From an uncultured Candidatus Saccharibacteria bacterium (lineage in GTDB: Bacteria; Patescibacteriota; Saccharimonadia; Saccharimonadales; Saccharimonadaceae): 64,000 nt of DNA. Positions within the stretch are counted from its first letter, which is position 1; every line of letters begins with the position of its first letter. The DNA lies in the NCBI GenBank assembly GCA_964616255.1, contig CAZTQW010000006.1, positions 2,389 through 66,388 on the forward strand, in the 5' to 3' direction. The notes below the pieces were generated by a model, which was given only the letters and a program-made list of their open reading frames with translations, ran no database searches and was not told the origin of the DNA. The position numbers and the translations under genes were made by a program. This document shows, piece by piece, positions 3,910 through 58,490 of this stretch.

Positions 3910-6801
<2,892 letters not shown>

Positions 6802-9546: not shown

Positions 9547-12500
9547 CTACTGCACTTTGACACATTCGCTGCCCAATAGCTCCGTGAGTGGCCCCATTAG
9601 ATCGTCATTAACATCGATGCGAAATGGTAATTTCAATGGTCGTTTCTTCTCCCCTTCCTTGATCACCATAATGATTTCCTGTACTCCAGGATTTAGCTCA
9701 CAGAGATGACGAATTTCACTTAGGGCCTCGGTATTATCAGGATTCTCGATCAGCACGTAAAGCTTCTCGCCCCGCGGATCTTTAGGCGGATCTACTGGAG
9801 CATGCGATCCTTCGATACTTGAACTACTTGGAGCACTACCATATCCTGCACTTACCGTCGCAGCCCGACTTCTACGGCTAGGTTTAGGAGCGGCTGCTTT
9901 AGGAACAGGTAATTTTTGCCCAGTTGGTTGATACTGCTCAAGGATTTCATCGGCGACAAGTTCAACCTTGTCAGCGATAATTTTTGCATCACTACTGATG
10001 CTGCCATCTTTATCTTTGGCATTAACCCGTCCTATAACTTTAATTACATTATCTTGTTCTAGCTTCCCTCCGACTTCAGCATACAAACTGGGAAAAATAA
10101 TTACTTCTTGCTCAGCAATTTTATTCTCGAGCTTTACGAAGGCCATTTTGGTCCCGCTCTTGGTCATGATGGTGCGCACCGAGCTAATGAGTCCACCAAT
10201 GCTGAGCATCTTACCATCATTTTCGGGCGAAACGAGATCATAGCTGTGAGTCTGCTCGCTGAAATAAGTCTCGTAACGGTCAAGTGGGTGACTAGAAACA
10301 TACAGCCCCATGAGGTCGCGCTCCCAGAGCAAACGCTCTTTTTCTGGGAACTTAGTAGGCGCAGGCTTGATCTCTGGCTCTGGTATTGCACCGGCCTCGC
10401 CCATTGCCCCGAATAAGTCGGTCTGACCACTAGCAGCATCTTTTTGGCGCTTTGCTCCATAAGCTTGGATATTTTCAAGATTAAACAGCAAGTCGCTACG
10501 ATCAGCAAACCGATCAAAGCTCCCTGTCTTAATCGCCGCTTCCCATGACTTTTTGTTGAATTTACTTGAACTTACCCGAGCAGCAAAATCACAAACACTA
10601 GTAAAGGGGCCGTTCTTGTCGCGCTCCGGAATAACATATTCTTCTACCAGTGCCTTGCCCATATTCTTGATACCAGAAAGTCCGAAACGGATCGTCTTCT
10701 CTCCACCCACAATACCAAAATCACCGTATGATTCGTTAATATCAGGCCCTAAGACCTTGAGGCCCATGCGCTTACATTCGGTAATTTCAATGGCGAGACG
10801 ATCCGTCCAACGCATATCTGCGGTCATCAAGGCCGCCATGAAGGCATCGGGGTAATGAGCCTTAAGATATGCGGTCCAATAAGCTACTAGGCCATAGCAC
10901 GCGGCATGACTCTTATTAAAGCAGTAATTCGCGAAATCCAAAAGCTCCGTCCAGAATTGTTCAGCAATTTCTTCGGTAGCTCCACCCACTTCTACGGCAC
11001 CTTTGATGAATTCAGGCTTCACCTTATTCATAAGGTCAACTTTCTTTTTACCCACTGCCTTACGCAAGGTATCAGCCTGACCACCAGTAAATCCACACCA
11101 TTCGCGAGAAATCTGCATGAACTGCTCCTGATAGATCATGATACCATAAGTATTCTTAAGTGAGCTCTCTAGACCAGGGTGCAAGTAGGTAATTGGTTCT
11201 TCACCGTGTTTGCGACGAATGAAGCTATCAATGAACTGCATAGGCCCTGGGCGATAAAGGGCCACCATAGCGATGATATCCTCAAAACAGTTAGCTTTAA
11301 GATCGCGCAGATAACGTTTCATGCCGGCCGACTCCAGCTGAAAGACACCGGTGGTTTCTGCTCGCTGCAAGAGTTCGTAAGTTTTTTGATCGTCAAGCGG
11401 TAAATGCACCAGATCAACATCATCATGGTAGACTTTGCGGATCATTCTAAGTGCATTATTAATAACAGAAAGGTTGCTCAGACCCAAAAAGTCCATCTTG
11501 AGCAAGCCCATCTCTTCAATCTGACCCATGGGGAATTGAGCGGCAATCGGGCCCTTGGCCGAAACTTCCAGCGGAACAATCTTTTCTAGATCGTCCGGCG
11601 CGATAATTACACCACAAGCATGTACACCATGATTGCGAATTGTGCCTTCCATTTTGCTAGCAAAGTCTAGCACTTCTTTAGAAACAGGATTGGTTTGATA
11701 CTCGTTACGAAGATCGGGTACGTCTTTGATGGCATCGGCTAGGTGTACATGATGACCTTGCACCGGATCGGGTACTAGCTTGGCCAAGCGATCCGCATCA
11801 GCATAAGGCACTTCTAGCACTCGCGCTACGTCGCGCACGGCATTCTTAGCCATCATCTTACCAAAAGTGGCAATGTTGGAAACGCGCTCACTACCATATT
11901 TGCGCGCACAATATTCAATTACCTCGTCACGGCGAGTATCCTGAATGTCAGTATCAATATCTGGCATAGAGATACGGTCGGGGTTCAAAAAGCGCTCAAA
12001 AAGTAAATCATATTTCAGCGGATCGAGCTCGGTAATCCTCAGGGCATAAGCCAAAATACTACCAGCCGCCGAACCACGACCAGGGCCAAAAACGATGCGT
12101 TGACTCTTGCCCCAGTTAATAAAATCCTGCACGATTAAGAAATAACCGTTGTAGCCCATCTTATCTACCACTCCCAGCTCGTAGTCGATCCGAGGCAGTA
12201 CCTTCATTTTTTCTTCGGCGCGTTCTGGTGTCTGGTCAACTTCTTCTAGGATTTTCCGGCATTCTTCTACCGTAAGGTTAGTGGTTTCTTCGAGTTTCTT
12301 ATTGCCATAACGATAAACCAGCCCTTGAAAAACTAACTTATCGAGGTAGCTTTTTTCATTCTCGCCGTCTGGCAAGGGGAATTTAGGAATGAGGATTCTT
12401 CCTAGCTGTAAATCAACATTGCAGCGGTCGGCAATACGTCGAGTATTACGTACAGCCTCCGGAAAATCTTTACCCCAACGTGCGATAATGTCATTAGGTG

Positions 12501-26547: not shown

Positions 26548-26751
26548 TTCGTCCGTAACGGGTGGCTGAGCCTTAATAATAGTGCTCTAAAAAACTTTGG
26601 CCACGTTGGCCACAATTGGTCGCGCACTAGTGCTAATCTCGGATCGCCAATTAATGCACGGGCTTATTATATTGCATTTAGCAATCCACCTGTTGATTCA
26701 TCTATAATCAGTGCTCGGTTTTACGGTTTCCCCGTCCGCTGTTTGGTATAC
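26548..26751 (+). repeat. Cassette C1: start-less CLec/FISUMP-like C-terminal segment
   Basis: 204 nt, stop-free: FVRNGWLSLNNSALKNFGHVGHNWSRTSANLGSPINARAYYIAFSNPPVDSSIISARFYGFPVRCLVY; ends shared with C2 and C3. Confidence 0.85.
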
Positions 26752-26790: not shown

Positions 26791-27028
26791 TCTTTTGAGG
26801 GGCAGCCAACTCCTTGACTAGGTTCAAAAGATGTGCGAGAATGAGATTACAAATTTGTTGCTTACTTACGTTTCCGTTTTGGGACGTAAGTAATTTTTAG
26901 TTTCAAAACTGTGAGACTAAAGGCAAGTTTCCATACACGGAAATGTATTACCATACAAACTCTTCCTCCCTTCCCCTGCATAGTTTTCTAAGACTCTTTG
27001 TCAAGTTTCGGCTACCCTGAGTCTTAGA
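26791..27028. ncRNA. Densely structured intergenic segment, six adjacent stem-loops (candidate RNA)
   Basis: Stems at 26791-26831, 26862-26893 (TTACTTACGT/ACGTAAGTAA), 26896-26921, 26928-26943, 26944-26957 and 26987-27028 (TCTAAGACTC/GAGTCTTAGA). Confidence 0.5.
26862..26954 (-). CDS. Candidate 30-aa basic amphipathic peptide (type I toxin-like)
   Basis: MVIHFRVWKLAFSLTVLKLKITYVPKRKRK*, with GGGAGG about 10 nt upstream; below the ORF-track cutoff. Confidence 0.35.
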   Translation of the reverse strand: MVIHFRVWKLAFSLTVLKLKITYVPKRKRK

Positions 27029-27079: not shown

Positions 27080-27283
27080 GTATACTAAACAGCGGACGGG
27101 GAGACCATACCAACGACTGTAATTAGCAGATGGGTTAACACCTGAAGCAGTGAAAGCAAGATTATAAGTATTGGCTGAAGTAGGAGATGAATAACTAGTA
27201 GGATTTTTTGACCAACCATGACCATCATGGCCGAATCGCCTCATAGTACTATTATTAAGATTAACCCACCCGCTACGGACGAA
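27080..27283 (-). repeat. Cassette C2: start-less CLec/FISUMP-like C-terminal segment
   Basis: 204 nt plus TAA: FVRSGWVNLNNSTMRRFGHDGHGWSKNPTSYSSPTSANTYNLAFTASGVNPSANYSRWYGLPVRCLVY*. It lies just past the terminator of the upstream gene. Confidence 0.85.
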
Positions 27284-28552: not shown

Positions 28553-29635
28553 GTGATGAAAGTTTTGGAGAATGTACCGATTGCCGAGTTGACTACTATG
28601 CGTTTGGGCGGTGAAGCAAAATACGTATTAGAAGTAGCTAGTTTGGAAGAAATACAGGAGGCTTTTGATTTTGCTAAAAACCAGAATCTACCAGTCTGGG
28701 TAATGGGTGGCGGAGCTAATACTATTGGTCATGACGAAGGGTTTCCGGGTGTAATTATCTTGAATCGTTTACGGGGCATTTTTATACATGGTGATGAAGG
28801 ATTAATAGATGTTAAGGAGTTTGGCGGTTCAGAGCCTGCTCAAGATGAAGCGACTTTTACGGCAATGGCTGGCGAAAGTTGGGACAATCTAGTAGAGGTG
28901 GCCTGCGCCTGGGGCTATTCCGGAATCGAAGCTATGAGCATGATACCTGGCACAGTGGGAGCGGCGCCAGTACAAAATATCGGTGCTTACGGACAAGATA
29001 TTTCTAAGGTGATTGAGCAAGTTGAGGCTTATGATACACAGACTGGTGAATTAGTAAAACTGCCAAAATCGGAAATGCAGATGGGTTATCGACATACGAG
29101 ATTCAACTACGGCAGCGATGCTGGGAGATTTGTAATCTTGTCGGTTACGATTCGGTTGTATAAGGGTAGTCTGCAGCCGCCGTTCTATAATTCTTTACAA
29201 AGATATATAGATAATATGCATGAGACGAATTTTTCTCCAGAGAATATTCGCCGTATGACATGCGAGATTCGCAGTGAGAAGCTGCCCGATCCTGCCAAAA
29301 TTGCCAGTGCAGGTAGCTTCTTTAAGAATGTTTATGTGGATAAAACCGCAGCGGACGAGGCTGAAACAAAGGGTATTCCTGTGTGGCGCAGTAGCGACGG
29401 CAAGGGCAAAATTAACTCAGGTTGGTTGATTGAAGCCTGCGGGTTGAAAGGTGCTGAGCTATATGGCTTTAAAGTTAGCGATAAGGCTGCTTTGGTGCTG
29501 ATTAATGAAAGTGCTACGAGTTATGCGCAGCTGAAAAAAGCTCGATCGCAAATTATTGACGCAGTGAAAAATAAATTTGGCTATACTCTAGAGCAGGAGC
29601 CAGTAGAAATACCGAGCGGAGAAAAGATGATTTAG
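28553..29635 (+). CDS. murB: UDP-N-acetylenolpyruvoylglucosamine reductase
   Basis: TTMRLGGEA, MGGGANT, IPGTVGAAPVQNIGAYG, SAGSFFKN, LEQEPV. Confidence 0.95.
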   Translation: MMKVLENVPIAELTTMRLGGEAKYVLEVASLEEIQEAFDFAKNQNLPVWVMGGGANTIGHDEGFPGVIILNRLRGIFIHGDEGLIDVKEFGGSEPAQDEATFTAMAGESWDNLVEVACAWGYSGIEAMSMIPGTVGAAPVQNIGAYGQDISKVIEQVEAYDTQTGELVKLPKSEMQMGYRHTRFNYGSDAGRFVILSVTIRLYKGSLQPPFYNSLQRYIDNMHETNFSPENIRRMTCEIRSEKLPDPAKIASAGSFFKNVYVDKTAADEAETKGIPVWRSSDGKGKINSGWLIEACGLKGAELYGFKVSDKAALVLINESATSYAQLKKARSQIIDAVKNKFGYTLEQEPVEIPSGEKMI

Positions 29636-29674: not shown

Positions 29675-30538
29675 ATGAAAATTTTGAATGGTGCTGAGTT
29701 GGCGGGTTACATGAAAGCAAATCAAGCTCACCAGGTGCGTGTCCTAAGGGCGGGAAAGATTCAGCCGAAGCTTGTGATTATTCGTGATAGCGACCAGGCT
29801 GTGATCGCGAAGTATGTAAAACTAAAGCGGAAATACGGTGAGGATATTGGAGTTGTGGTCGAAGATCTTTTAGTTGATGATGTCGCGAATGCTATTGACG
29901 AAGTGAACAAACGCGAAGATGTGCACGGTATGATTGTGCAATTACCACTGAAAAATATCAGTGGTACTAATGAGATAATTGGCCAAATTGATCCCGCGAA
30001 GGACGTTGATGGTTTGGCAACCTATATTCATCTAGTGAATAATGCTAAAAATGTTTATTCATCTGGTGATATATCTCTTGATAAGAATCAGTCGTGTTTT
30101 GAATCGGCGACAGCTACGGCAATTAACTGGTTGATGGCGGGGTATAATATTAAATTGCAGGGCTGCAAGATTGCTATTGTGGGTCACGGAAGGCTAGTGG
30201 GCGCCCCGCTAGAACGAATGTGGCAGAATTCGGGCTATGATGTGCGGGCCTTTAATAAAGGCGACAATCTAACTGAATTGCGAAATTTTGACGTAATTGT
30301 GAGCGCAACCGGTGTACCGCATTTAATTAAAAGTAGTATGGTAAAGCCTGGTGCCGTAGTCGTGGATGCTGGAACGGCGAGTGAAGACGGAGTGTTAGTG
30401 GGCGATGTAGAAGACTCGGTACGAGAGAGGGCTGATCTTAAGGCCATCACTCCGAAAGTTGGCGGTGTAGGACCTTTGACAGTGGCCGCTTTGTTCGAGC
30501 ATGTGCTAATAGCTACAAATAATGCAATTGCAAAATGA
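29675..30538 (+). CDS. folD: Bifunctional methylene-THF dehydrogenase/cyclohydrolase
   Basis: GMIVQLPL, IDPAKDVDGL, IVGHGRLVGAPL, ITPKVGGVGPLTVAALF. Confidence 0.95.
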   Translation: MKILNGAELAGYMKANQAHQVRVLRAGKIQPKLVIIRDSDQAVIAKYVKLKRKYGEDIGVVVEDLLVDDVANAIDEVNKREDVHGMIVQLPLKNISGTNEIIGQIDPAKDVDGLATYIHLVNNAKNVYSSGDISLDKNQSCFESATATAINWLMAGYNIKLQGCKIAIVGHGRLVGAPLERMWQNSGYDVRAFNKGDNLTELRNFDVIVSATGVPHLIKSSMVKPGAVVVDAGTASEDGVLVGDVEDSVRERADLKAITPKVGGVGPLTVAALFEHVLIATNNAIAK

Positions 30539-30579
30539 CGACGTTATTTCTACATGTCACCGTGTGGTAAAATAGAATA

Positions 30580-30996
30580 GTAAGTTTCGAACTTATGGGA
30601 CCCAGAGGGACTATTTTGAGTAAAAGGCTCCAGCACCCCGAGGCTCTCTTGTTAATATAGATCGTGAAGTTACTCTCTAAACATTCCTGAAAGAATTATG
30701 AGGCCAGAAGATTGATCAAGACCACGGCCTTGATTATATCAAGCTAACTTCTTCATCAAGCCACCAACGATATAGTTTGTACTTAATTTTCCCTTTCGTC
30801 CGTAGCGGGTGGGTTAATCTTAATAATAGTGCCTTGAGGTCATTCGGTTATAACGAAAATGTTTGGTCTCGCTCTGCAGCCGCCTACTCTTCCCCTACTT
30901 CAGCCACCGCTTACAACCTCAACTTTGACCCCGCAGGTGTCAACCCGTCCAATGGCCCGAAAAATCGTTGGAACGGTTTCCCCGTCCGCCTTTTTT
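30580..30996 (+). ncRNA. Candidate stand-alone ~415-nt RNA: structured leader plus cassette C3
   Basis: Extended -10 TGGTAAAAT at 30565-30573; hairpins at 30581-30595, 30701-30730 and 30729-30743; terminator-like GGAACGG/CCGTCC followed by TTTTTT at 30970-30996; no downstream + strand gene. Confidence 0.5.
30795..30989 (+). repeat. Cassette C3: CLec/FISUMP-like segment, Asn-codon rich (template-repeat-like)
   Basis: FVRSGWVNLNNSALRSFGYNENVWSRSAAAYSSPTSATAYNLNFDPAGVNPSNGPKNRWNGFPVR. The first 36 nt are identical to C2; it diverges from C1/C2 right after CCCCGTCCGC. Confidence 0.85.
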
Positions 30997-31017
30997 GTCG
31001 CGGTTCGGTGCCGATCT

Positions 31018-33015
31018 TTATTTGCCATGCACAAAATCCACAATAATTTGGGCTACTTTTTCTTTGCCTGCCAAGGCATTAATGCACAGATCATAATTCT
31101 CTGGTCTCCCCCATCTTTGTCCGGAAATCAGTTCGTAATATTCAGATCGTTTACGATCAGATTGCTCCATATTTTTTCGAGCTGCCTTTGCGTCGTCGCA
31201 GTACATTTCTTGAATATTTTTTATCCGGTATTGTTCTGGAGCATAAATATGCACTCGCACAACTTCTGGAAAATTACGCAGGACGTAATCAGCAGCTCGA
31301 CCAACAATTACACAGCTTCCTTGCTTAGCAATCTCTTTTAAAATTACGTCTTGAGCTTCAATGGCATATTTAGCTGGTGAAGTTGTCAAATAAAGTTCGT
31401 GTAAAACTTCTTGCTCATCATTACTGTTAACTTTATTAATATAATCTTTGGTCAAACCACTTTTCTCGGCCGCCAATGCTGTCAGCTCTTTGTAATAATA
31501 CGGAATGTTTAATTCTTTTGCAACCAACTCGCCAATCTTTTTGCCTTGGGAACCATGTTGACGCGAAATTGTGATAATAGGACCAGGATGCGAAGTTTGA
31601 ATCGCTGCATCTTCTGTTGTAGACCTTGCCACAGTATCCAAACGACGGAAATATGCAATCGCCAAAGTAGAAGCGATAATGATACCAATCACATCTGCTA
31701 CTGGCGCCGCCCAAAGAATACCATTAATATTATTCATGATGCGCGGCAGTATTAATACCAATGGAACAAAGAGAATAATATCGCGCGATAGTGAGACAAT
31801 GGCAGCCCTAAGTGGTTCACCAACAGCTTGAAAGAAAATTGAAATTACCTTAATGCCACAAGTAAACGTAATCAACATGAGAAAAATCCGGAAGGTCAGA
31901 GTTGCAAACTGCATATACAACTCAGGATTCTCGGAGTTAGAGCCGAAGATGCGGATAATTGGCTCTGGGCAAAATTCAAAAATAATTGTAGCGACTAGAC
32001 CAACAATCACTGTAGCTATCATGCATTTGCGGAAAGTTTCACGCACGCGTGCTGTGTTACCAGCACCGATATTGAAGCCAAGTATTGGTTGCGCACCAAT
32101 AATAATGCCCATCGCGATGCTCAAGACAATGGTAAACACCTTCATACAGATACCGATGATTGCTAATGGATCATTTGCACCGTATTCAGAGTTTGCTCCG
32201 TAAATGGCGAGCATTTTGTTACAAACCATGGAAATAACTACGATGGATAGCTGCGTGATTAAGGTGGAGATTCCGAGCTTTACGATATTGCTCATGACTT
32301 GACTTTGTGGCTTGAAGCTAGCAAGAGAAAGTTTAAAAGTTTTAGTACGAGTAAGGTAAATAATCGAAATAATGAGAGTTACAATTTGACCGGTAATGGT
32401 GGCCCAGGCGGCACCTTGAATGCCCCAGTTGAGTGCAAAGATAAAAATCGGATCGAGAATAATATTAGTGATCGCTCCCGCGACAGTAGCAATCATAGCA
32501 AAAGCTGGTGAACCATCGGCGCGAATCACCGAATTTAGCATGTAGCCCAACATATAAACTGGGAAAAAACTTAAAATGATAAAGAAATACTGCCTAGCAT
32601 AAACAATGTTATCTGCACTGGCTCCAAATAGCCCTAAAATTTGGTCTGCAAAAACAAATCCTAGTACCACTAAAACAATGCTAATCAAAAACGTGATGAG
32701 CGCACTGCCACCAACGGCATGATGTGCGTTCTTCGTATCTTTGCGCCCTTGGCAAATCGATAGAAAGGCAGCGGTACCATCGCCGAACATACCCGAAAGT
32801 GCCACTGCGGCTAAAGTCAGTGGAAACACAATTGAAGTAGCTGCGTTACCGACGGCTCCCAGGCCCTCAGCTGTACCATGTCCAATAAAGATTTGGTCAA
32901 CGATATTATAAAGTGACGTAATTAATAGTGCTAAAATGCACGGTATAGAAAATTCTAATAACAATTTTGAGATTTTTGCTTGACCAAGATATTTATTGTC
33001 TTTTCCACTATCCAT
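31018..33015 (-). CDS. MATE family efflux transporter fused to a C-terminal cytidylate-kinase-like domain
   Basis: LYNIVDQIFIG, IRADGSP, NIILDPIFIF (MATE), followed by ITISRQHGSQGKKIG...GSCVIVGRAADYVL. Confidence 0.9.
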   Translation of the reverse strand: MDSGKDNKYLGQAKISKLLLEFSIPCILALLITSLYNIVDQIFIGHGTAEGLGAVGNAATSIVFPLTLAAVALSGMFGDGTAAFLSICQGRKDTKNAHHAVGGSALITFLISIVLVVLGFVFADQILGLFGASADNIVYARQYFFIILSFFPVYMLGYMLNSVIRADGSPAFAMIATVAGAITNIILDPIFIFALNWGIQGAAWATITGQIVTLIISIIYLTRTKTFKLSLASFKPQSQVMSNIVKLGISTLITQLSIVVISMVCNKMLAIYGANSEYGANDPLAIIGICMKVFTIVLSIAMGIIIGAQPILGFNIGAGNTARVRETFRKCMIATVIVGLVATIIFEFCPEPIIRIFGSNSENPELYMQFATLTFRIFLMLITFTCGIKVISIFFQAVGEPLRAAIVSLSRDIILFVPLVLILPRIMNNINGILWAAPVADVIGIIIASTLAIAYFRRLDTVARSTTEDAAIQTSHPGPIITISRQHGSQGKKIGELVAKELNIPYYYKELTALAAEKSGLTKDYINKVNSNDEQEVLHELYLTTSPAKYAIEAQDVILKEIAKQGSCVIVGRAADYVLRNFPEVVRVHIYAPEQYRIKNIQEMYCDDAKAARKNMEQSDRKRSEYYELISGQRWGRPENYDLCINALAGKEKVAQIIVDFVHGK

Positions 33016-34083: not shown

Positions 34084-34111
34084 AGTCCCGGCTGAACAGT
34101 CGGGACTTTTT
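34084..34111 (+). terminator. Intrinsic terminator
   Basis: AGTCCCGGCT-gaac-AGTCGGGACT followed by TTTT. Confidence 0.85.
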
Positions 34112-35897
34112 AATCGCGCTTAAGCATTACCGTAAAAGCTTCACTAGGAATATCAATTTTGCCAAAACGTTTCATACGAGCTTTACCGCGTTTTTGTTTT
34201 TCTAGTAATTTGGCCTTACGATCGCGATCGCCAGTATGGATCTTTACAGTCACATCTTTGCGATAAGCACCGATGGTCTCTCGCGCAATAATCTTTGCTC
34301 CAATCGCCGCTTGCAGAGCCACCTCGTAATTTTGACGAGGAATAACTTCTTTAAGTTTTTTTGTAATTTCCCTGCCTAGAGCATCAGCTTCGCTGCGATG
34401 GCACATGAGGCTAAGTGCGTCCATACGATTCCCGGCCACCAGAAAATCCAAACGCACCAAATCCTCTGGACGATAATCGCAGAGTTCGTAATTAAAACTG
34501 GCATAGCCCGAAGTGATACTCTTAAGTTGATCATAGAAGTCCGTAAGTAAATTTGCCATAGGCGCTTCAAAATCAATCACGGCACGATCCTCAATATAAC
34601 TCAAGTTGGTTTGGTGGCCGCGCTTTTCGTTAATCAGATTCAGCACCCCGCCAATCATATTCTGCGGTAAGATAATTTCGCCCTTGACCCACGGTTCGCG
34701 AATTTCGAGAATGCTTGATTGATCTGGCAAGTCAGCCGCCGAGCGAATGTTTAATTCCTCACCGGCCGCAGTCGTCACTTCGTAATTGGTTGATGGGTTG
34801 GTGATGATTAAATCGAGATTGAATTCGCGCTCTAAGCGCTCTTTGATGATATCCATATGTAGCAATCCCAAAAATCCAATGCGCAGGCCAAAGCCTAGGA
34901 CAGGAGAATTTTCCGGTTCGTAGACCAGCGCTGAATCGGACATTGCTAGCTTTTCGACAGCCTCTTTGAGGTCATCATATTGGTCGTTAGAAACAGGAAA
35001 GAAACCGGCATAGACAAAAGGCAAGACGTTTTTGTAACCGGGAAGAGGCTGCTCGGCGGGAGCTTTAGCCAAGGTGATAGTATCGCCAACCTTAGCCTCA
35101 CGCGTAGTTTTGAGATTGGTCACGATATAGCCAATAGCACCTTCATCAAGAAAATCTCTGGGGCTCATTTTGGGAGTTAATACCCCTACTTCTAAGGCTA
35201 GGCCATTAACTTCCGCAGCCATCATGCGAATTTCGTCGCCCTTCATCAACTTGCCGGCAAAAATCCGCACATAGAGCACCACCCCACGATAATCATCAAA
35301 GTAGGAATCGAAAATCAGGGCACGCAGTTTGGGCGCAGTTTCAAGTTTGGAGCCTCGGGGAGCGGGAGCCCTTGTGACAATTGCATCTAGAATTTCGGTG
35401 ACACCTTGGCCAGTTTTGCCGGAAGCCAGGATAATTTCTTCGCGCGGGCAACCAAGAAGATTAATAATCTGCGCACTAACTTTTTCCACGTCCGCAGCTG
35501 GCAGGTCTACCTTATTGATGACAGGAATAATGTATAAATCTTGTTCTAGGGCTAGGTAGACATTAGCTAAAGTTTGTGCTTGAATTCCCTGAGTAGCATC
35601 AACTACTAGTACCGCAGTCTCGACGGCCTGGAGCGAACGCGAAACTTCGTAAGAAAAATCAACGTGCCCGGGAGTATCTATTAAGTTGAGCTCGTAGCCG
35701 CGCAAGTGCATTTGTACAGGAGTAAGTTTGATCGTAATACCCTTTTCGCGCTCAAGCTCCATCGAGTCTAGCAACTGAGACTTCATCTCACGTTTAGAGA
35801 CAGTACTAGTCAGCTCCATCATACGATCGGCAATGGTTGACTTGCCGTGGTCGATATGAGCAATAATGCAGAAATTACGAATTTTATCGGGGTCCAT
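34110..35897 (-). CDS. lepA: Elongation factor 4 (LepA)
   Basis: IRNFCIIAHIDHGKST, EREKGITIK, LIDTPGHVDF, GFLGLLHMDI, KLLEKQKRGK; start corrected to ATG 35897. Confidence 0.98.
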   Translation of the reverse strand: MDPDKIRNFCIIAHIDHGKSTIADRMMELTSTVSKREMKSQLLDSMELEREKGITIKLTPVQMHLRGYELNLIDTPGHVDFSYEVSRSLQAVETAVLVVDATQGIQAQTLANVYLALEQDLYIIPVINKVDLPAADVEKVSAQIINLLGCPREEIILASGKTGQGVTEILDAIVTRAPAPRGSKLETAPKLRALIFDSYFDDYRGVVLYVRIFAGKLMKGDEIRMMAAEVNGLALEVGVLTPKMSPRDFLDEGAIGYIVTNLKTTREAKVGDTITLAKAPAEQPLPGYKNVLPFVYAGFFPVSNDQYDDLKEAVEKLAMSDSALVYEPENSPVLGFGLRIGFLGLLHMDIIKERLEREFNLDLIITNPSTNYEVTTAAGEELNIRSAADLPDQSSILEIREPWVKGEIILPQNMIGGVLNLINEKRGHQTNLSYIEDRAVIDFEAPMANLLTDFYDQLKSITSGYASFNYELCDYRPEDLVRLDFLVAGNRMDALSLMCHRSEADALGREITKKLKEVIPRQNYEVALQAAIGAKIIARETIGAYRKDVTVKIHTGDRDRKAKLLEKQKRGKARMKRFGKIDIPSEAFTVMLKRD

Positions 35898-35952
35898 AAG
35901 TATAATTATAACACATTTTGGCAGCTTGGAGCATACTAGTATTTTCGCATCT

Positions 35953-35970
35953 TTCGTCTGTAGCGGGTAG
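35953..35970 (+). repeat. C4: decayed 5' end of the cassette family
   Basis: TTCGTCTGTAGCGGGTAG versus TTCGTCCGTAGCGGGTGG (16/18); located in the lepA-tilS intergenic gap. Confidence 0.55.
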
Positions 35971-36021
35971 CTGCGTCCGGAGGACTTTATAATAGTTGGC
36001 GACATGATATAATCGGTCTTA

Positions 36022-36966
36022 ATGAAAGTTATATTGGCGGTTTCTGGCGGGGTGGATTCGATGGTAATGCTAGATCTTTTTATGCATCATGTGAATAATT
36101 CTGATAATTGTTATTCATCTGGTGATATAATTGTTGCTCATTTTGATCACGGCATACGCGAGAATTCAGTCCTTGACGCAGAATTCGTCCGACATACATC
36201 TTTAGCGTATGGTTGCAAATTTTATCTTGGGCAGGCTAAACTTGGCGACCAGGCTTCTGAGGCTATGGCTCGCGAAAACCGTTATAATTTTCTTCGTCAG
36301 CTTGCCGTCGAGCAAAGCGATGATGGGCAGCCGGTGCAAATCGCGACTGCGCATCATCTGAACGATTTAGCAGAAACCGTTATCGTAAATTTTCTGCGTG
36401 GTACCGGCTGGCGCGGACTAGCCGCCTTAGATAGCTCCGGCATTCTGCGGCCGTTTCTTGAGCCAAACTTCTTTGCTAATATTACAAATCATGAAATTTG
36501 GAGCAAACAAGACATTCTGCGTTATGCTGGCGAGCATCAAATTGTTTTTCGCGAGGATCAGTCTAATTCATCTGATGCATATTTGCGTAACCGCATACGT
36601 CAACAAATGAATAATTCTATTAACTTTGAAAAAATTTTTCAACTCTGGAAACAACAGAAGGATCTGAAAAAAGCGATTGATCAGACCATAGATGGTCTTT
36701 TGCTGCCAGATAATTCTGAGTGGCCAAGAACGTGGTTTCAGAATTTAGATCAGGATATGCTTGATCGAGAAGTTGCTTTGGAGCTTTTGCGGGCTGGAAC
36801 TTTGCAGGTCGGTATTTCGGCTACTCGCCCGCAACTGGAAAATTTGCGTCAAGCAATTTTAAGTTATAAGCCGGGGAAATATTTTAATTTACCAGGAGAT
36901 AAATTAGTGAAGATGAAAAAGAATTCATTTGCTTTATCTGAAGAATCACTTATGGCTGGGCAATAG
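36022..36966 (+). CDS. tilS: tRNA(Ile)-lysidine synthetase
   Basis: LAVSGGVDSMV, AHFDHGIR, ARENRYNFL, TAHHLNDLAET, LRNRIR. Confidence 0.95.
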   Translation: MKVILAVSGGVDSMVMLDLFMHHVNNSDNCYSSGDIIVAHFDHGIRENSVLDAEFVRHTSLAYGCKFYLGQAKLGDQASEAMARENRYNFLRQLAVEQSDDGQPVQIATAHHLNDLAETVIVNFLRGTGWRGLAALDSSGILRPFLEPNFFANITNHEIWSKQDILRYAGEHQIVFREDQSNSSDAYLRNRIRQQMNNSINFEKIFQLWKQQKDLKKAIDQTIDGLLLPDNSEWPRTWFQNLDQDMLDREVALELLRAGTLQVGISATRPQLENLRQAILSYKPGKYFNLPGDKLVKMKKNSFALSEESLMAGQ

Positions 36967-38914: not shown

Positions 38915-38981
38915 ATAAAGTGTTATTCATCTGGTGATATAATTTTTAGCAGATTTTTCGGTTCTATGATATAATGAGTAT

Positions 38982-49932: not shown

Positions 49933-51144
49933 ATGAATAATGAGTTAATTCTTCCGAAACAAACTGCCAATCTAGATGTTTTTGATGCGACTCTGAAAAT
50001 TTATAGTGAAGCTAATGGTGCATGGGTGACAAATCGCAATTATAAAGACCGCATTCAAGAATTAGTTCCCCGTCTCACGACTGGAGCACGCGATGAGGCT
50101 TTCATGGTCAAACAATCGGAGATGGCGCGCTATTTTGGCTTCGTGGAGTATGATTTCGAGCAACACCGAGCACGGATTACCTCTACTGGAAAAGAATTCT
50201 ACGAAGCTCGAATTAATCATGATCAGCCGAAGATTAATGATTTAATTTTGCAGGCAATTCTGCATCACAGTTTTGGTCGCAATAATTCAGCAATCAAAGG
50301 TAGCAATTCTGATGTCGACCCACCAAAACTGTTCGTAAAGGCAATTCTGGATACTACAGAAATTGACGATGACTCGGAAAGCGAAACTAGCGATGTGACT
50401 GATGGCATTAACAGAACTGATTTAGCTTATTTAATCTATTTGACTCACGATAAAGGAATTAGTTATGAAGATGCAATTAACTTGTTGCTCGGCTATTACA
50501 CTCTGCCAGCAGATTTGCCAAATAAATACACGGATGTGAAATTTCCCAAATTTCTGAAAAACTTAGGAATCGTACTCACGCATAATGGAAATTATCTTCT
50601 GAGTCCGGAAATCATGCTCCAATATGCTGAGCAAATTAAAAATCTTACTATTTATAATACTAATCATGCTAGCGAAATTACCAATGAAGATCTTGCGCAT
50701 GAGGCGATCATGCAAGCTACGGAGTATCCGAATTTAGAAAGTGATGATTTTATTAAGCAGAATGAACGCGAACCAGTCAAAGTCGTGAACACGCAAACCA
50801 CCTACAAGCGAGATGCGCGCCTCGCCAAAACCGCACTAGTGCGATCAAATTATAAATGTCTGCTCGATGAGGATCATACGACTTTTCCAGACAAAGATGG
50901 TCATTCTTATGTCGAGGCACATCATTTGATTCCGATGTCGGCCCAAAAAGATTTTGACATCAACATTGATCGTATAGAAAACATTGTTTCGCTTTGCCCA
51001 AATTGTCATAGGGCGATTCATTATGGCGACGATGCTACGAGACGCAGTTTATTAGAAAGATTATATGACCTGAAACGAGCTGATTTTGCGCAAGCCGAAC
51101 TCGATATTAGTTTTGATGATCTTTACAAAAAATATTATGCGTAA
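49933..51144 (+). CDS. Putative restriction endonuclease with C-terminal HNH domain
   Basis: CLLDEDHTTF...YVEAHHLIPM...NIVSLCPNCHRAIHYG; convergent with two C5 methyltransferases. Confidence 0.8.
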   Translation: MNNELILPKQTANLDVFDATLKIYSEANGAWVTNRNYKDRIQELVPRLTTGARDEAFMVKQSEMARYFGFVEYDFEQHRARITSTGKEFYEARINHDQPKINDLILQAILHHSFGRNNSAIKGSNSDVDPPKLFVKAILDTTEIDDDSESETSDVTDGINRTDLAYLIYLTHDKGISYEDAINLLLGYYTLPADLPNKYTDVKFPKFLKNLGIVLTHNGNYLLSPEIMLQYAEQIKNLTIYNTNHASEITNEDLAHEAIMQATEYPNLESDDFIKQNEREPVKVVNTQTTYKRDARLAKTALVRSNYKCLLDEDHTTFPDKDGHSYVEAHHLIPMSAQKDFDINIDRIENIVSLCPNCHRAIHYGDDATRRSLLERLYDLKRADFAQAELDISFDDLYKKYYA

Positions 51145-52288
51145 GCCGGCAGCCGTGTGTGAGCTCGAGAGCGATATTCTTTACTAGCATTGGTGGAATA
51201 CCTTCACCAATAACTTGGCGCACTAGTCGATCTTCGGCCCATTCTGGAATACCCCAATCAGTCGGCAGAGAAAAAACAATCAAAAGTTCATAAATCGTCA
51301 AACACCGAGCATCGGAATAAATTCGCACACCGTCAGCATCATGGCCCAGGCATTTGCCGGGGTGAACACAACACAATGACGAGATTACACCATTGTTTTG
51401 TGTAATCGTACGAGCAGGCTTATCCCATTCAAAACGTCGATAGGTATTATAATGACCATTCACCCGCTCGCCGTTATCTTTTTTAGGATAATAGACTGGG
51501 TTATGGAAGGCCGTCTCGCCCGTAGGAGTATGCATCATCGTAATCACGTGTTTTTTAGCATGAACTGGCGGGTGGTGAAATTTTGACAGAGCTTCGGCCT
51601 GTTCTTTTTTGTCATAAAAATCTGGAAAAAGCTTCAAGGTCTCGTCAATTCCCTCGCGTAACATGGGGTCCACAGACGGCAAATGATAAAGAGCCTTGCG
51701 TAAATTAATATGCGGCTTAGGCGCGGGCATCTGCCAAGTGTAAGATAAATCTTTGCGCGACAGGAGAAAAATATTACGCCGACGCATCTGTGGAACTTCA
51801 TAATCCATAGCACTAACTAAACTCTGATCAGCAAAATTATAGTCAGGTGCCAATTCTTGCTTGATATATTCGGGGATCATCATGGTCTGCTCACGCACAT
51901 GAATCTCGGTTTTGAGAAGTTGCGGAACGTTTTCGAGCAGGACGTACTTCGGCTTCAGTTCCTTAATCATCTTCACCGCATAAAAAATTAGTTGATTGCG
52001 CTCATCGTAACGATCACGTTTGCCCGCCAGACTCATGCCTTGGCAAGGCGGAGTAGCAATGACGAAATCCACTTGTTGCCGACGAGCACGTTGTAAAATT
52101 TGTGCAAAAACCGCTTCATCAGCAATGTCACCAGTAATGACTTCCGTCGCCGGATACAAATACTGATAAAATCGGGAACGTGTTGGATCGATTTCATTAG
52201 CTATGACAATATCAATACCACAATCATGTAGGTAGGTTTCGGCAATACCGACATTGGCGAAGAGGGACAGGCCGCGTAATCTATTCAT
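51107..52288 (-). CDS. DNA (cytosine-5)-methyltransferase 2
   Basis: Motif I SLFANVGIAE, catalytic PPCQG, ENV, QMRRR, motif X GEGIPP. Confidence 0.95.
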   Translation of the reverse strand: MNRLRGLSLFANVGIAETYLHDCGIDIVIANEIDPTRSRFYQYLYPATEVITGDIADEAVFAQILQRARRQQVDFVIATPPCQGMSLAGKRDRYDERNQLIFYAVKMIKELKPKYVLLENVPQLLKTEIHVREQTMMIPEYIKQELAPDYNFADQSLVSAMDYEVPQMRRRNIFLLSRKDLSYTWQMPAPKPHINLRKALYHLPSVDPMLREGIDETLKLFPDFYDKKEQAEALSKFHHPPVHAKKHVITMMHTPTGETAFHNPVYYPKKDNGERVNGHYNTYRRFEWDKPARTITQNNGVISSLCCVHPGKCLGHDADGVRIYSDARCLTIYELLIVFSLPTDWGIPEWAEDRLVRQVIGEGIPPMLVKNIALELTHGCRLTHNIFCKDHQN

Positions 52289-53416
52289 GGATCCTCACTA
52301 ACTCTTGCATAATATTCTTTACTAGCATTGGTGGAATACCTTCACCAATAACTTGGCGCACGAAATGCTCGGAAGCCCAGCTCGGTATATTCCAATTATC
52401 TGGCAAAGACATAATACGCATCAACTCAAAAACCGTCAGCACGCGCGCATCAGAATAAATATCGAAGCCGTCCTGGTCTTTACCAAGGTAGTGCCCAGGG
52501 TGAACGTTATTCTGCGAGCCAATTGTGCGATTATACATCGTAATAGTATAACCCGGTCGATCCCAAGCCTGACGCTTGTAAGTATTTTTAAAACCTTTGA
52601 CCAATGTGCCATCTTTTTTTCTAGGCTTAAACCGGTCGATATTACGAAAGGCCGTCTCACCCGTAGGAGTATGCATTAAACTAATGACCTGACGATAAAT
52701 ATGTTTGGGAGGATAGTGCCAAGGTGAGACTTTCAGCCCAGCGACCTTTTTTTGCTCAAAATCAGGAAAGAGCTTTTTCCGCTCCGCTAAAGGCAAGTCG
52801 TGCACTTCGGGATCTAGTGATGGTAAGTTGCCAATTGCTTCGGCCATAGTAATAATATGTTCATGCTTGGGTGGGGTATGCCAGACATAAGGCAAATCTT
52901 TGCGGGTTAAAAGCATAATTGCGCGCTCGCGAGTTTGCGGTACACTATAATCTTCTGCATTCATAACGAATTGACTGTTGAAGTTATAGTTTTCGCCCAG
53001 TTCTTGCTGCACATAATCCGGTATCAAAACTTTATCACCTCGATAAGGAATACATGTGCGCAGTTGCTCGGGCACGTTCTCTAAAAAGACGTACTTCGGC
53101 TTCAGTTCCTTAATCATCTTGACGGCATAAGTAATCAAGAAGTTACGTTCGTCATTCTGATCCTTCTTTCCGGCCGTACTCATTCCCTGGCAGGGCGGAG
53201 TGGCCATAATCAAATCAACCGACTGCTGCCTAGCATAGTCTAAAAGACATTCCTGGACAGCGCTATCCTTGATGTCCCCCGTGACCATTTTTGTCTGGGG
53301 ATACAAATGCTGATAAAATCGGGAACGTGTTGGATCGATTTCATTAGCTATGACAATATCAATACCACAATCATGTAGGTAGGTTTCGGCAATACCGACA
53401 TTGGCGAAGAGGGACA
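51174..53416 (-). repeat. Identical DNA blocks shared by the two methyltransferase genes
   Basis: 107 bp (52163-52269 = 53310-53416), 33 bp (51941-51973 = 53088-53120) and 50 bp (51174-51223 = 52312-52361). Confidence 0.9.
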
Positions 53417-53438
53417 TTGCCTTGATTTTTGGTCGCAT
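52281..53438 (-). CDS. DNA (cytosine-5)-methyltransferase 1
   Basis: SLFANVGIAE, PPCQG, ENV, QTRER, GEGIPP; paralog of the adjacent gene. Confidence 0.95.
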   Translation of the reverse strand: MRPKIKAMSLFANVGIAETYLHDCGIDIVIANEIDPTRSRFYQHLYPQTKMVTGDIKDSAVQECLLDYARQQSVDLIMATPPCQGMSTAGKKDQNDERNFLITYAVKMIKELKPKYVFLENVPEQLRTCIPYRGDKVLIPDYVQQELGENYNFNSQFVMNAEDYSVPQTRERAIMLLTRKDLPYVWHTPPKHEHIITMAEAIGNLPSLDPEVHDLPLAERKKLFPDFEQKKVAGLKVSPWHYPPKHIYRQVISLMHTPTGETAFRNIDRFKPRKKDGTLVKGFKNTYKRQAWDRPGYTITMYNRTIGSQNNVHPGHYLGKDQDGFDIYSDARVLTVFELMRIMSLPDNWNIPSWASEHFVRQVIGEGIPPMLVKNIMQELVRIHE

Positions 53439-54042: not shown

Positions 54043-55215
54043 TTAGACACTGCCATTATTTGGACAAGGGCCTTGGTCAGTCCAACAATTAGCCGTGATC
54101 CAGAAATTCTTTAGGAATGATTTATCTCCATCTCCTGTGAGCTCTACTTCGTATTCTGGGTATGGGAAGAAGAGATCGGCGGGATCTAGCCTTGTCTCGA
54201 CTCGACGCACGAGCTGATTGGCACGACCAGTGGAGTCGACACTGATTTGGACGTTTTCGAATGGAATAGGATCGCCGCCATCGTCTAATAGCTCCACCAT
54301 GAAATCGGTGACGATATCTCCATATGGCATAGAGATTATCAACATGGCATTTTGTATATCAGTCCCCATTCCTGCTTCTAAGGTGACTGAACACGCGAAC
54401 TCATCACCCATTTTACACTGAACTAGATATGGTTCATTCGGTTTTGATGATAAGCCTGCGTTTGCTACATCATTATTATCGAAAAAATTGCCGGCCCTAG
54501 ATGCGTTAGTTGTGCTAGGCAAAAACAGCATGCTGCCGTAGTTAGGATCCTCGCTTTTATTAAAAGCATCGAGATTAATTGTGCCTTTTGTCTTCAGTAA
54601 CGTAACCGACAGAGCTGGCGGTGTATATGAGTCGTTCTTGTTCGGTAGTTTCTTACTATTTCCTGCAGTTTTTCCGAATTTAGTACCATTAACTTCAGAA
54701 TACCAATTTATTCTGATTTTTTTAACATTAGACAGCTCAGTACTACCTATACCTAGAGGAACTACTTTTGTTCTATTGTCGGACGTAAGAGTAGAACGAT
54801 AATCACCGACTATGTTCTCAAGGATCACACATGTATAGGCCTGTTCAGTACTGTTGCCAGCGGATTCTTGAATTTTGACTTCACCAGCTCCGCTGCCAGG
54901 ATAGAGGAAAGACTTTAACTTAAATGTGCCACCTTCTGCACCCTCACTATTACATTCTCCACCGAACAAATCGCCAATGTCTGCAGAATTATAATTCTTA
55001 TAAAACTTGTTTACCGCTAATTTAGCATCTTCTACACCAGCCATGGCCGAGTCATAGGCGGATTGACTAAGGTCGTCATTTCCTGTTTGCTGAGACTCCG
55101 ATAAAATAATCCGAATGAAGCTGAGGGTGATGACCCCGAATAGAATCGTTGCGAAGATAACTACATACAACGAGGCAACCCCTTTCTTACTTAAACTTTT
55201 ATTAATCTTTTTCAT
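54043..55215 (-). CDS. PilX/GspK-like minor pilin
   Basis: Prepilin-like KKG/VASLYVVIFATILFGVITLSF lacking Glu5; SQSAYDSAMAGVEDA. Confidence 0.75.
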   Translation of the reverse strand: MKKINKSLSKKGVASLYVVIFATILFGVITLSFIRIILSESQQTGNDDLSQSAYDSAMAGVEDAKLAVNKFYKNYNSADIGDLFGGECNSEGAEGGTFKLKSFLYPGSGAGEVKIQESAGNSTEQAYTCVILENIVGDYRSTLTSDNRTKVVPLGIGSTELSNVKKIRINWYSEVNGTKFGKTAGNSKKLPNKNDSYTPPALSVTLLKTKGTINLDAFNKSEDPNYGSMLFLPSTTNASRAGNFFDNNDVANAGLSSKPNEPYLVQCKMGDEFACSVTLEAGMGTDIQNAMLIISMPYGDIVTDFMVELLDDGGDPIPFENVQISVDSTGRANQLVRRVETRLDPADLFFPYPEYEVELTGDGDKSFLKNFWITANCWTDQGPCPNNGSV

Positions 55216-55216
55216 A

Positions 55217-56197
55217 CTAGTCTACTCCAGCCGTACGGGCGGCAAAATTAAATTTATTAATCGCACAATAATTAAATTCTGAGCCAAGATCATTAAGACT
55301 GCTAGTGTCTCCCGAGATAACTTCACCAGTTACTGGATCCACCACACTATTTGGCTGACAATAATCACCTGTCCTAACGATATCTATATTGCCTCTTGTA
55401 GTTGCTAAAGTAAAAGTACCAGACATGTATGTACGTAGTGTCATGTTGTCTTGACTGATTGGGAAAATTGTAAATTCATACAGTTCCAAATCAAGATCAA
55501 AAGCACTCAGCATCATGCCGCCTTCTGGTTTTGAAATGGGATTTTCTGGCGATGATGCAGCATTTCTCATTCTTGTAATATCAAATACGACATCTGCCTC
55601 TACAAATGAATCGCTTACTCCTTCATAGGTAGAAGTGTAGTCATTCTTAAGTTTCGCTGTACACAATCTGTAAGTAGGATCTTTAATTCGTACAAGCCTC
55701 GGCTTATCTACTTTTTCGAGATTTCCGTCTGTATCTATGTATTGTAGCGACACAGTACTTTTATTAGGGCCGTTCAACCCATAATATGTATTCCACATGT
55801 ATGAATAGGTTCCAGAACAGAAAATTCCATTAAGTTGTCTGCCTTTTTCGTCTCTTCTATCTTGATAAACAAATTTGAAAGCATGTTGTTTTTTGCATTC
55901 TTTAACTCTATGAGCATTACTTTCGCTCTGATTAAGAAAATCACCATTGCATAAGCTTGTGGTATCAACAGCAGGCGCAGTATTAATCCCAGCAATAAAC
56001 TCATCTGTTAGGCCACGTCCTACACTATTTACTGCTTTGATAGTTAAACCTTTCTGATATATTGTCATTATATTACTAGTTATAACGGCGATAGTAATTA
56101 GTAATACTGCAACGAAAGCCATAGTGAGGGATAACTCTACCATAGTAAAACCACTCTTTGCACTGGAATAACCTAATGTTTTTTTTCCAAACTTCAT
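55217..56197 (-). CDS. Type IV minor pilin
   Basis: Prepilin motif KSG/FTMVELSLTMAFVAVLL. Confidence 0.85.
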   Translation of the reverse strand: MKFGKKTLGYSSAKSGFTMVELSLTMAFVAVLLITIAVITSNIMTIYQKGLTIKAVNSVGRGLTDEFIAGINTAPAVDTTSLCNGDFLNQSESNAHRVKECKKQHAFKFVYQDRRDEKGRQLNGIFCSGTYSYMWNTYYGLNGPNKSTVSLQYIDTDGNLEKVDKPRLVRIKDPTYRLCTAKLKNDYTSTYEGVSDSFVEADVVFDITRMRNAASSPENPISKPEGGMMLSAFDLDLELYEFTIFPISQDNMTLRTYMSGTFTLATTRGNIDIVRTGDYCQPNSVVDPVTGEVISGDTSSLNDLGSEFNYCAINKFNFAARTAGVD

Positions 56198-57911: not shown

Positions 57912-57982
57912 GTTTCTATATTATCATAAGTTTTTTAATAAATGAACTCTTGATTTTTGCATTTTATATATTATTCATGCTG

Positions 57983-58414
57983 CTAAATGCCAAACAGGAA
58001 CGACAGCCATTGTTCAAAATTACTTCTAGTCTCAGTAGCTAAACTTTCTTCGGTGACGACAACTTTATGTTTGTTCTTGGCTAGCTCGGAATTATCGGGT
58101 AAGTAGACCATAGTTTCGCCCGCTAGCATTTTGCCCTGATATTTGCGCGCAGCTAACTCTTGGTATTCATCAGAAAGATAGTAATTATTCTCGAGTTCCA
58201 AAGTTTCAACTTCTAGTTCTAGGAGAGCTTTCTCACGTTGTTTTCCGGCCAGTTCTTCTGCCAGGCTCCAGTTGCGCGACATAGAGCTGACGGAGCCCCA
58301 TGTCCACATCAGGCTAAAAATCAATGCTCCGAGCAGAAAAATATTATCAAACACAAAAAGATCATGTTTGAGCCAATATTGAAACTTGCGCAACCGAGTT
58401 TTGATCCCGCTCAT
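57983..58414 (-). CDS. FtsB/FtsL-like septum formation initiator
   Basis: Short N-tail, one TM segment, coiled coil, YQELAARK...MLAGETMVYLP. Confidence 0.65.
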   Translation of the reverse strand: MSGIKTRLRKFQYWLKHDLFVFDNIFLLGALIFSLMWTWGSVSSMSRNWSLAEELAGKQREKALLELEVETLELENNYYLSDEYQELAARKYQGKMLAGETMVYLPDNSELAKNKHKVVVTEESLATETRSNFEQWLSFLFGI

Positions 58415-58490
58415 GAGTATATTATATCATGAGTACTTCGCTTATGATTGCATCTGATAGCTATATATAGTACAATGATTGCTAGTAACT

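Follow-up and report, generated by a model that had tools for sequence, protein, structure and literature searches.

A probable free-standing template RNA gene of a diversity-generating retroelement in a rodent gut Candidatus Saccharibacteria genome

Introduction

In the diversity-generating retroelement (DGR) of the Bordetella phage BPP-1, the elements follow one another in the order mtd variable repeat (VR), avd, template repeat (TR) and brt, and structured RNA has to flank the template (PMC6182149; bioRxiv 10.1101/2023.10.23.563531). In Trichodesmium erythraeum, the TR is an abundant 265-nt non-coding RNA with its own promoter that serves at least 12 VRs, including remote targets (PMC4143802; PMC8867640), and remote targets were also reported for the DGR of Treponema denticola (PMC5758913). 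Separate and abundant TR non-coding RNAs, many dispersed VRs and action in trans are hence already described (PMC4143802, PMC5758913). Surveys of DGRs start from the reverse transcriptase (RT), seek a TR/VR pair within a few kb, and themselves state that they are blind to targets away from the RT (PMC8144416). Such an RT-first search is therefore blind to a template gene that is not linked to an RT, as well as to the cassettes that it serves. Recombination alone underlies another form of surface variation, the antigenic variation by silent cassettes of Neisseria pilS, Mycoplasma genitalium MgPar and the Anaplasma msp2 pseudogenes. Here we describe a 64-kb stretch of DNA (hereafter the window, meaning the whole stretch analysed) from a Candidatus Saccharibacteria genome of the rodent gut, in which positions 30565 to about 31020 probably form a free-standing DGR template RNA gene having the cassette C3 as its TR.

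We put the probability of this reading at about 0.8. A preliminary description made from the sequence alone had proposed such a stand-alone template RNA, and the proposal is supported here with corrected boundaries. Sequencing runs that share 97-98% of the words of the window are mouse or rat gut samples.

The template repeat and its variable partner

Cassette C3 lies on the forward strand at 30795-30989 (195 nt) and is made of a 5' anchor, TTCGTCCGTAGCGGG (30795-30809), a body rich in Asn codons and a GC-rich 3' element, CCCCGTCCGC (30980-30989). It counts 11 AAY codons, and 34 of its 40 adenines occupy codon positions 1-2. The part seen copied with mutagenesis of adenines extends from about 30842 to 30979.

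The preliminary description had called for a copy differing from C3 only at adenines. This check was run on Logan contigs of DNA runs holding this genome, aligned over 30770-31040, and a copy that answers to it downstream of 30842 was found at single-copy depth in the same metagenomes. In X1, two paths of equal depth cross C3, one identical to the window (10.6x and 9.4x) and one variant (10.2x and 8.8x); both share the unitig 30859-30914 at 21x, and the single-copy flanks stand at 9.4-10.8x. The variant of X1 and X2 departs from C3 by A>G at 30852, 30857, 30915, 30928 and 30951 and by A>T at 30853, 30858, 30916 and 30921. The variant path of X5 carries another set of changes, namely A>G at 30853, A>T at 30915 and 30943, and A>C at 30858, 30942 and 30951. 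X19 and X25, two runs doubtfully labelled as RNA, present the X1-type variant with an additional A>C at 30962 and continue into the VR-type flank TGTTTGGTATACAAGTTGA, which is the 3' flank of the cognate copy, its 5' flank being ..TTACTTTAATTAAC.

Over X1, X2, X5, X14, X19 and X25, 12 of the 12 distinct variant sites downstream of 30842 are adenines in C3; the probability that nine differences among 147 positions, of which 30 (20%) are adenines, would all fall on adenines is 6e-7. Matching codon changes (N>V, N>Y, N>V, N>Y, D>G, N>D and K>R) are found in P0005, a protein of an NCBI assembly. We conclude that C3 serves as the invariant template, of which the second copy is the VR. Since A>G, A>T and A>C are all present, the changes bear the signature of a DGR RT and not that of deamination or recombination. 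The C3 path of X5 shows 0-1 differences in ~400 nt, and the adjacent folD of the same strain diverges by 2.1%. The cognate copy thus differs between close strains while the template is near-identical, which points to recent or ongoing activity.

The same bias holds for two pairs drawn from related genomes, with mismatches at 7 of 31 adenines versus 3 of 164 other positions between the TR of L001 and the VR of L043 (p = 1e-4), and at 15 of 42 adenines versus 4 of 153 other positions between the TR of L021 and the VR of L044 (p = 2e-8). TR and VR differ (almost) only at template adenines, as in known DGRs, and the partner of C3 lies outside the window.

Two other cassettes of the window belong to the VR type. 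C1 (26548-26760, the cassette proper being 26548-26751, forward strand) is intergenic with no open reading frame (ORF) upstream, and C2 (27077-27283, cassette 27080-27283, reverse strand) ends in ..GLPVRCLVY-stop with the flank TGTTTAGTATAC. The three cassettes, of ~200 nt each, have a common reading frame, and their DNA is nearly identical at the 5' end TTCGTCCGTAGCGGG and also has the 3' element GGTTTCCCCGTCCGC in common. Past this shared element, C1 and C2 run into TGTTTGGTATAC.. and C3 into CTTTTTTGTCGCGGTTCGG.., and it was rightly remarked earlier that C3 leaves the other two directly after CCCCGTCCGC. All cassettes share (GG)TTTCCCCGTCCGC, which is followed in the VR type by TGTTTGGTA(T/A)AC and in the TR type by a pyrimidine-rich spacer and GTCGCGGTTCGGTGCCGATC. 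A shared GC-rich 3' element followed by differing flanks would correspond to the initiation of mutagenic homing elements of DGRs (IMH in the VR, IMH* in the TR).

C3 is identical to C1 at 54% and to C2 at 68% of positions, with mismatches spread over all four bases and no bias toward adenines. A TR/VR pair inside the window was consequently rejected, and C1 and C2 are, as the preliminary description had anticipated, too diverged to be direct products of C3; the AAC and AAT codons that it had pointed out in C3, at sites where C1 and C2 have other residues, are also present. The interior of C2 (27108-27245) is swapped in strains X5 and X6 for a sequence less than 90% alike, the flanks differing by 1 letter, and C2 may be a live target of another template located outside the window. 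C1, with 1 difference in 300 nt between strains, looks static and no longer served. The spacer between the convergent C1 and C2 (26817-27077) contains an inverted repeat, TTACTTACGT..ACGTAAGTAA, at ~26865-26895, as well as a block (26843-26861) of substitutions and 1-nt indels between strains.

Putative promoter, leader and tail of the unit

An extended -10 element, TGGTAAAAT, is located upstream of C3 at 30565-30573 on the forward strand, with a predicted transcription start at ~30579-30581. Its conserved pattern, TGnTAnAAT, recurs at the same distance (~61 nt) upstream of the leader motif GGCTCCAGC in 8 of 8 related units; the element noticed in the preliminary description is thus present and kept at a fixed spacing, and it is from this conservation that we infer a promoter.

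The fold of the leader was obtained with RNAalifold on eight units and comprises seven helices. Helix 1 is the 5' hairpin GTAAGT/ACTTAT (30580-30596, forward strand), whose 6 pairs, 4 of them compensatory, are formed in 100% of the alignment cells; its pairing is kept through changes such as AAGTT/AACTT, AAGC/GCTT, AGACT/AGTCT and GGAC/GTCC, and the hairpin that had been placed at the predicted 5' end is therefore real. Domain 2 (30597-30648, forward strand, helices 2-4) nests the helices GGGA.CC..GGGACT...GAG/CTC..AGC.CCC..GG.TCTC around the invariant GGCTCCAGC and is 92-98% paired, with a compensatory change in 4 pairs. Domain 3 (30666-30751, forward strand, helices 5-7) is closed by the long-range helix GAAGTTA (30666-30672)/TAACTTC (30745-30751) and holds two hairpins, the distal one of which, 30712-30721 with 30726-30735, shows compensatory changes in 8 of 10 pairs. 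The comparison favours this arrangement over the stems AGGCC/GGCCT and CTTGAT/ATCAAG initially proposed for the region.

Altogether, 94% of the leader cells are paired versus 86.5% in shuffles, and compensatory changes affect 18 of 42 pairs versus 6.9±1.9 in shuffles, none of 500 reaching 18; a slid control, with partners shifted by 1-3 columns, gave 3-7 compensatory pairs. The covariance analysis suggested beforehand for this leader thus finds it conserved, with covariation, across 9-10 distinct loci. The structure draws its support only from comparison; folding of the lone sequence is uninformative, its energy being no better than that of shuffles (z = +1.3). A search of Rfam 15 returned 3 tRNAs as the only matches in the window and none for 30400-31150 even when reporting up to E<=10, the best scores in that interval (E 0.8-9) lying far under the gathering scores. 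This also settles a check raised in the preliminary description, since it rules out a known housekeeping RNA as the identity of the leader, and membership in a known RNA family was rejected.

Downstream of C3, a tail specific to the TR type (30990-31020, forward strand) consists of a pyrimidine-rich spacer and the invariant GTCGCGGTTCGGTGCCGATCTTT. It is invariant across 6 lineages that are otherwise ~60-75% alike, the form common to every unit being (G/A)TCGCGGTTCGGTGCCGATCTTT. The leader strand (A)TAGATCG (30657-30664, forward strand; consensus AAAGATCG) is predicted to pair with CGATCTTT of the tail (31012-31019). Indeed, RNAalifold on the full unit pairs AAAGAUCG with CGAUCUUU at these positions, with 8 predicted pairs that are invariant apart from one C>U change retained as G-U, and it also pairs the 3' end of the template, CCG.CCGC, with GCGG..CGG of the tail. 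The predicted duplex of leader and tail would close the RNA around the template. Both predicted duplexes are invariant and so have the support of conservation, not of covariation.

The preliminary description had an RNA of ~415 nt end at a hairpin followed by T6 (30970-30996). The template RNA unit stands, but this end is not supported: the T-run (30990-30995) varies among relatives, a consensus terminator scan made no call on the hairpin and T6 at 30970-30996, and the invariant tail TGTCGCGGTTCGGTGCCGATCTTT extends beyond the proposed terminator to 31019. The T6 was consequently rejected as a conserved 3' end, which most likely lies at ~31020 or further. A strong hairpin follows the tail by 6-14 nt in 7 of 8 units, with differing sequences and two UACG loops. 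In RNA-labelled runs, contigs extend over the unit and the window flanks have no depth; these contigs belong in part to other strains, overrun both ends or may contain DNA.

Related units in other Saccharibacteria

Searches of public collections, with the 20-nt tail and with ORFs of Asn-rich cassettes, yielded 9-10 distinct units when the window is included (window, L001/L017, L009, L010/L014/L023/L038, L012, L015, L021/L022 and L043). Each comprises an extended -10 element, a leader of ~190-215 nt, a TR-type cassette and the invariant tail, and L010 aligns over the full length of 30565-31019. Their neighbourhoods are all different (folD/MATE, ABC-F, gyrA, an integrative-conjugative-like region, SHMT/flavin reductase and RNase HII/ychF). 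A profile of the leader hits 13 places in 575 kb of DNA, one of them in the window, each directly 5' of a TR-type cassette and none elsewhere. L011, L013 and L016 were rejected as units, their tail 20-mers being chance matches in GC-rich genes. In X1, contigs that carry the tail and differ at 2-7 positions have a near single-copy depth, and cassette ends are present at a tens-fold excess depth; template genes number several, and VR-type cassettes tens, in this genome family.

A VR-type cassette stands directly upstream of the template promoter in L010 (9517-10201), L014, L015 (9899-10540), L021 (~9640-10290) and L023/L038. In L010, L015 and L038, this pair lies within a region of integrase, relaxase and TraG/VirD4-like genes, and the L038 contig is classed as viral by IMG/VR. 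In a 2-kb stretch of L043 (3100-5311) downstream of gyrA, a template unit on the reverse strand (~4219-4721) is accompanied by two more reverse-strand cassettes and by one forward-strand VR cassette, which derives from a different, L001-type template.

What the cassettes encode

A profile of 51 cassette ORFs matched 3334 representative proteins, most of them short ORFs or ORFs running through tandem cassettes in changing frames. The long genuine matches are multi-domain surface proteins, in which the cassette aligns to positions 128-187 of the 187 of Pfam Fib_succ_major and to Lcl_C. Judging from this homology, the cassette codes for the final third of a C-type-lectin-like domain (FISUMP/Lcl_C), which is the portion classically diversified by DGRs. 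The ratio of non-synonymous to synonymous substitution rates (dN/dS) between templates of different lineages, 0.16-0.62, indicates present or past selection on the encoded peptide at the protein level.

The VR-type cassettes are truncated 3' remnants and not intact genes. Some retain more codons of the domain (..SICPKGWKLP..), ~55 at most, and no full-length gene appears among the 55+120 homologues listed, all of at most 224 aa. VR-type copies do end at a stop codon, but none of those examined lies at the 3' end of an intact C-type-lectin or Ig-fold gene. Several other readings were tried and rejected. Stop-codon reassignment or read-through does not account for the broken ORFs, as each of the three stop codons occurs several times upstream. 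A 274-aa ORF upstream of C2, considered as the N-terminal part of a target, has no Pfam match, is out of frame in the window and is separated by a stop in L001. The shared flank NYNIAREPLY, considered as a sign of the same locus served by different templates, is itself repeated at different loci. Annotated phage records gave no match to the C3 peptide. Repeated homing may preserve the cassette portion of genes that have otherwise decayed, since an NNC codon can never become a stop and the template restores every position that is not an adenine; this leaves the protein-level constraint unexplained.

Proposed functioning and evidence against it

Transcription from the extended -10 promoter would give an RNA of ~440 nt or longer, made of a structured 5' leader (~215 nt), the template repeat C3 (195 nt) and an invariant tail (~30 nt), for which pairing is predicted both to the leader and to the GC-rich end of the template on its 3' side. 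Leader and tail would together act as a scaffold for RT binding, priming and stopping. A DGR-type RT encoded elsewhere, whose existence is deduced from the adenine-specific pattern, would copy the template into cDNA while misincorporating opposite adenines, and this cDNA would replace a VR cassette having both anchors, TTCGTCCGTAGCGGG at the 5' end and CCCCGTCCGC followed by TGTTTGGTATAC (IMH-like) at the 3' end. Behind this scheme stand the conservation and covariation of the unit, the adenine-specific and strain-variable differences between C3 and its cognate, the homology of the cassettes and the fact that no RT lies near the unit.

Several observations weigh against this interpretation, first of all those on the RT itself. 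Among the 52 window ORFs of at least 120 aa, none has a Pfam match to RVT_1 or to an Avd-type protein. No RT is found among the genes around eight units, including L001, L009, L010, L012, L015, L021 and L038, scans for RT motifs (YxDD) and tblastn with two DGR RTs yielded none in 324 kb, and no RT with (I/L/V)GxxxSQ occurs within a few kb of the TR in the window or around the related units. At least locally, then, the template is uncoupled from an RT, as the preliminary description had supposed, none being present within the 64 kb of the window or beside any of the related units. The cognate copy also shows non-A changes, limited to its 5' edge (30840-30842, TCA>GTC, and further 5'), and it is linked to the genome of C3 via equal depth and not by a joined assembly. 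Template loci may themselves differ at A-type sites between samples, as for P0043 and P0200, which represent one template locus (identical tail and downstream flank) with A-type codon changes in the other sample. Furthermore, the window unit has no strong post-tail hairpin of the kind found in 7 other units, four metatranscriptomes searched as raw reads yielded no reads, and transcript ends were not seen. On the side of the targets, each of the ~40 VR-type cassettes examined is preceded, within a few codons, by stops of all three kinds; ~340 kb of DNA contain no complete FISUMP domain, and AlphaFold2 on the cassette alone gives an unfolded model (predicted local distance difference test score 44), leading us to reject the cassette as a self-folding small protein.

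Scans of IMG/VR for the tail and the anchors retrieved one integrative-element-like contig (L023/L038), without RT, and otherwise unrelated canonical phage DGRs.

Alternative explanations

A broader scheme extends the template gene to a distributed DGR, in which several independent template genes, scattered over the genome and an integrative element and each with a 5' scaffold permuted with respect to the Bordetella RNA, would depend on one RT, remote or on another replicon such as a phage or mobile element, and on universal 5' and 3' anchors, any template being able to rewrite any of tens of cassettes; these cassettes, as truncated gene ends lacking a promoter, would form a DGR-diversified silent reservoir, expressed through recombination into a full-length FISUMP surface-protein gene or through unconventional translation. 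We advance this extension tentatively and consider it rather unlikely.

We judge it improbable that the locus is a dead relic, that is a DGR that lost its RT, with an adenine pattern left by past activity and a unit now unused. Such a view fits the lack of an RT in the window or near any unit, the location of VR cassettes in truncated genes, the stasis of C1 between strains and the missing downstream hairpin of the window unit. It is contradicted by the cognate, which differs at template adenines between close strains whose template and flanks show 0-1 difference in ~400 nt and whose folD diverges by 2.1%, by the strong conservation of the whole unit, non-coding leader included, over lineages 60-75% alike, and by dN/dS values under 1.

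Even less probable is an RT-independent origin, according to which C1, C2, C3 and their relatives would be truncated silent copies donated by RecA-dependent gene conversion to an expression site, C3 being one donor among others. The cassettes are indeed truncated 3' remnants with conserved 5' and 3' anchors, on both strands and some of them in tandem in changing frames; recA, ruvB and recX lie within the window; one diversified cassette occurs with different upstream flanks (P0033 versus L002 18393-18599); and in P0015 a flank of the VR type is continuous with a tail of the TR type. Gene conversion would, however, not restrict differences to adenines of a single invariant partner while producing A>G, A>T and A>C alike, it leaves unaccounted for the presence of a promoter, structured leader and tail on the Asn-rich copies only, and no expression-site gene was found among the homologues listed or in ~340 kb. 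The ORF in P0015, which fuses a VR-type upstream flank to a TR-type tail, and the pair P0043/P0200 suggest occasional recombination between template and variable loci, and gene conversion may act in addition to the DGR.

Finally, another RT-associated non-coding RNA (a retron-like msr/msd or the template of a defence RT) embedding the cassette, and yielding free cDNA with no rewritten gene, is hardly credible: its promoter, structured RNA, template and terminal pairing AAAGATCG/CGATCTTT recall the retron a1/a2 layout and no intact target gene was found, but RNAs of retrons and defence RTs adjoin their RT gene, which is not so here, the template is codon-structured with its adenines at positions 1-2 and homologous to DGR TRs, genomic partners changed at adenines imply integration into DNA, and no Rfam retron family matches.

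Other features of the window

The unit follows murB (28553-29635) and folD (29675-30538), both on the forward strand, and precedes a convergent MATE/cytidylate-kinase-like ORF (31018-33015, reverse strand) and lepA (34110-36005, reverse strand). It had been stated that no protein gene lies downstream on the strand of C3, and the next gene is indeed the convergent ORF. A segment of ~56 nt of folD (30025-30080) recurs at 80-93% identity in a tilS-like gene (36081-36136) and after a nucleoside triphosphate (NTP)-transferase gene (38918-38947); the folD copy coincides with a gap of ~22 residues between two Pfam domains, which suggests a short shared insertion. Positions 49933-53438 carry an HNH endonuclease gene and, after it, a tandem pair of paralogous genes for C-5 cytosine DNA methylases, 70-92% identical in segments; this is probably a restriction-modification or orphan-methylase cluster. 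On the reverse strand, 54043-63404 harbors five consecutive ORFs (143-390 aa) and a 1307-aa ORF with no Pfam match.

Significance

In the literature searched, we found no description of a template gene unlinked to an RT at every locus, of multi-copy template genes, of a conserved 5' scaffold or of cassettes in truncated genes. If the interpretation is true, DGR activity is under-counted in host-associated Saccharibacteria and perhaps in other reduced genomes, and the conserved leader and tail form a compact RNA scaffold that can be searched for directly. A leader located 5' of the template, versus the mostly 3' scaffold of Bordetella, would further offer a natural permutation for testing the RNA needs of the DGR RT. 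Rewritten cassettes in gene remnants also raise the question of whether homing just maintains "zombie" cassettes or feeds recombinational surface variation in an obligate epibiont.

Comparison with known systems

Among the systems compared, retrons share with this locus a terminal pairing, here predicted, but the locus has no adjacent RT and no Rfam retron match for an msr/msd. Silent-cassette systems resemble it by their many promoterless and 5'-truncated surface-gene ends, dispersed or in tandem, with conserved flanking anchors; they differ by having neither template RNA nor adenine-specific changes, and the expression site on which they rely was not found here, among the homologues listed or in ~340 kb.

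Gut phage DGRs with FISUMP/C-lectin-type VRs (IMG/VR L039, L040 and L042) are closer, their TR peptide being homologous (..NAYNLNFNSGGVNPANNNNRRYGF.. versus ..TAYNLNFDPAGVNPSNGPKNRWNGF..), and a phage TR is 81% identical in DNA to the L010-type TR over 57 nt. In these phages, unlike here, the RT ORF lies within ~10 nt of the TR, and they have neither a Saccharibacteria-type 5' leader nor the GTCGCGGTTCGGTGCCGATC tail. As in Trichodesmium erythraeum and Treponema denticola, for which it is established that remote sites are acted on in trans, the TR would form a transcription unit of its own, with several dispersed VRs per template. In these two species, however, the TR adjoins the RT gene and the VRs lie in protein-coding genes, whereas the Saccharibacteria TR gene is unlinked and multi-copy and its VRs lie in truncated remnants.

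The BPP-1 element has avd, TR and brt side by side, with a structured spacer of ~140 nt located 3' of the TR; here, by contrast, no avd or RT was found within 10 kb or more at any of the 9-10 loci, the structured RNA lies mostly 5' of the TR (~215 nt) with a 3' tail of only ~30 nt, and the target is not an intact gene. Leader and tail have no sequence similarity to canonical DGR loci. The likeness to the BPP-1 DGR lies in an invariant, Asn-codon-rich template with an adenine-specific TR/VR difference, in a GC-rich 3' element after which the TR and VR flanks diverge (IMH*/IMH), and in a variable part that is the C-terminus of a C-type-lectin-like fold. It may extend to the RNA itself, as the predicted pairing of leader and tail resembles the upstream/downstream duplex reported for DGR RNAs, and the predicted pairings of the tail have counterparts in the Bordetella phage DGR RNA, namely its distal and template:primer duplexes.

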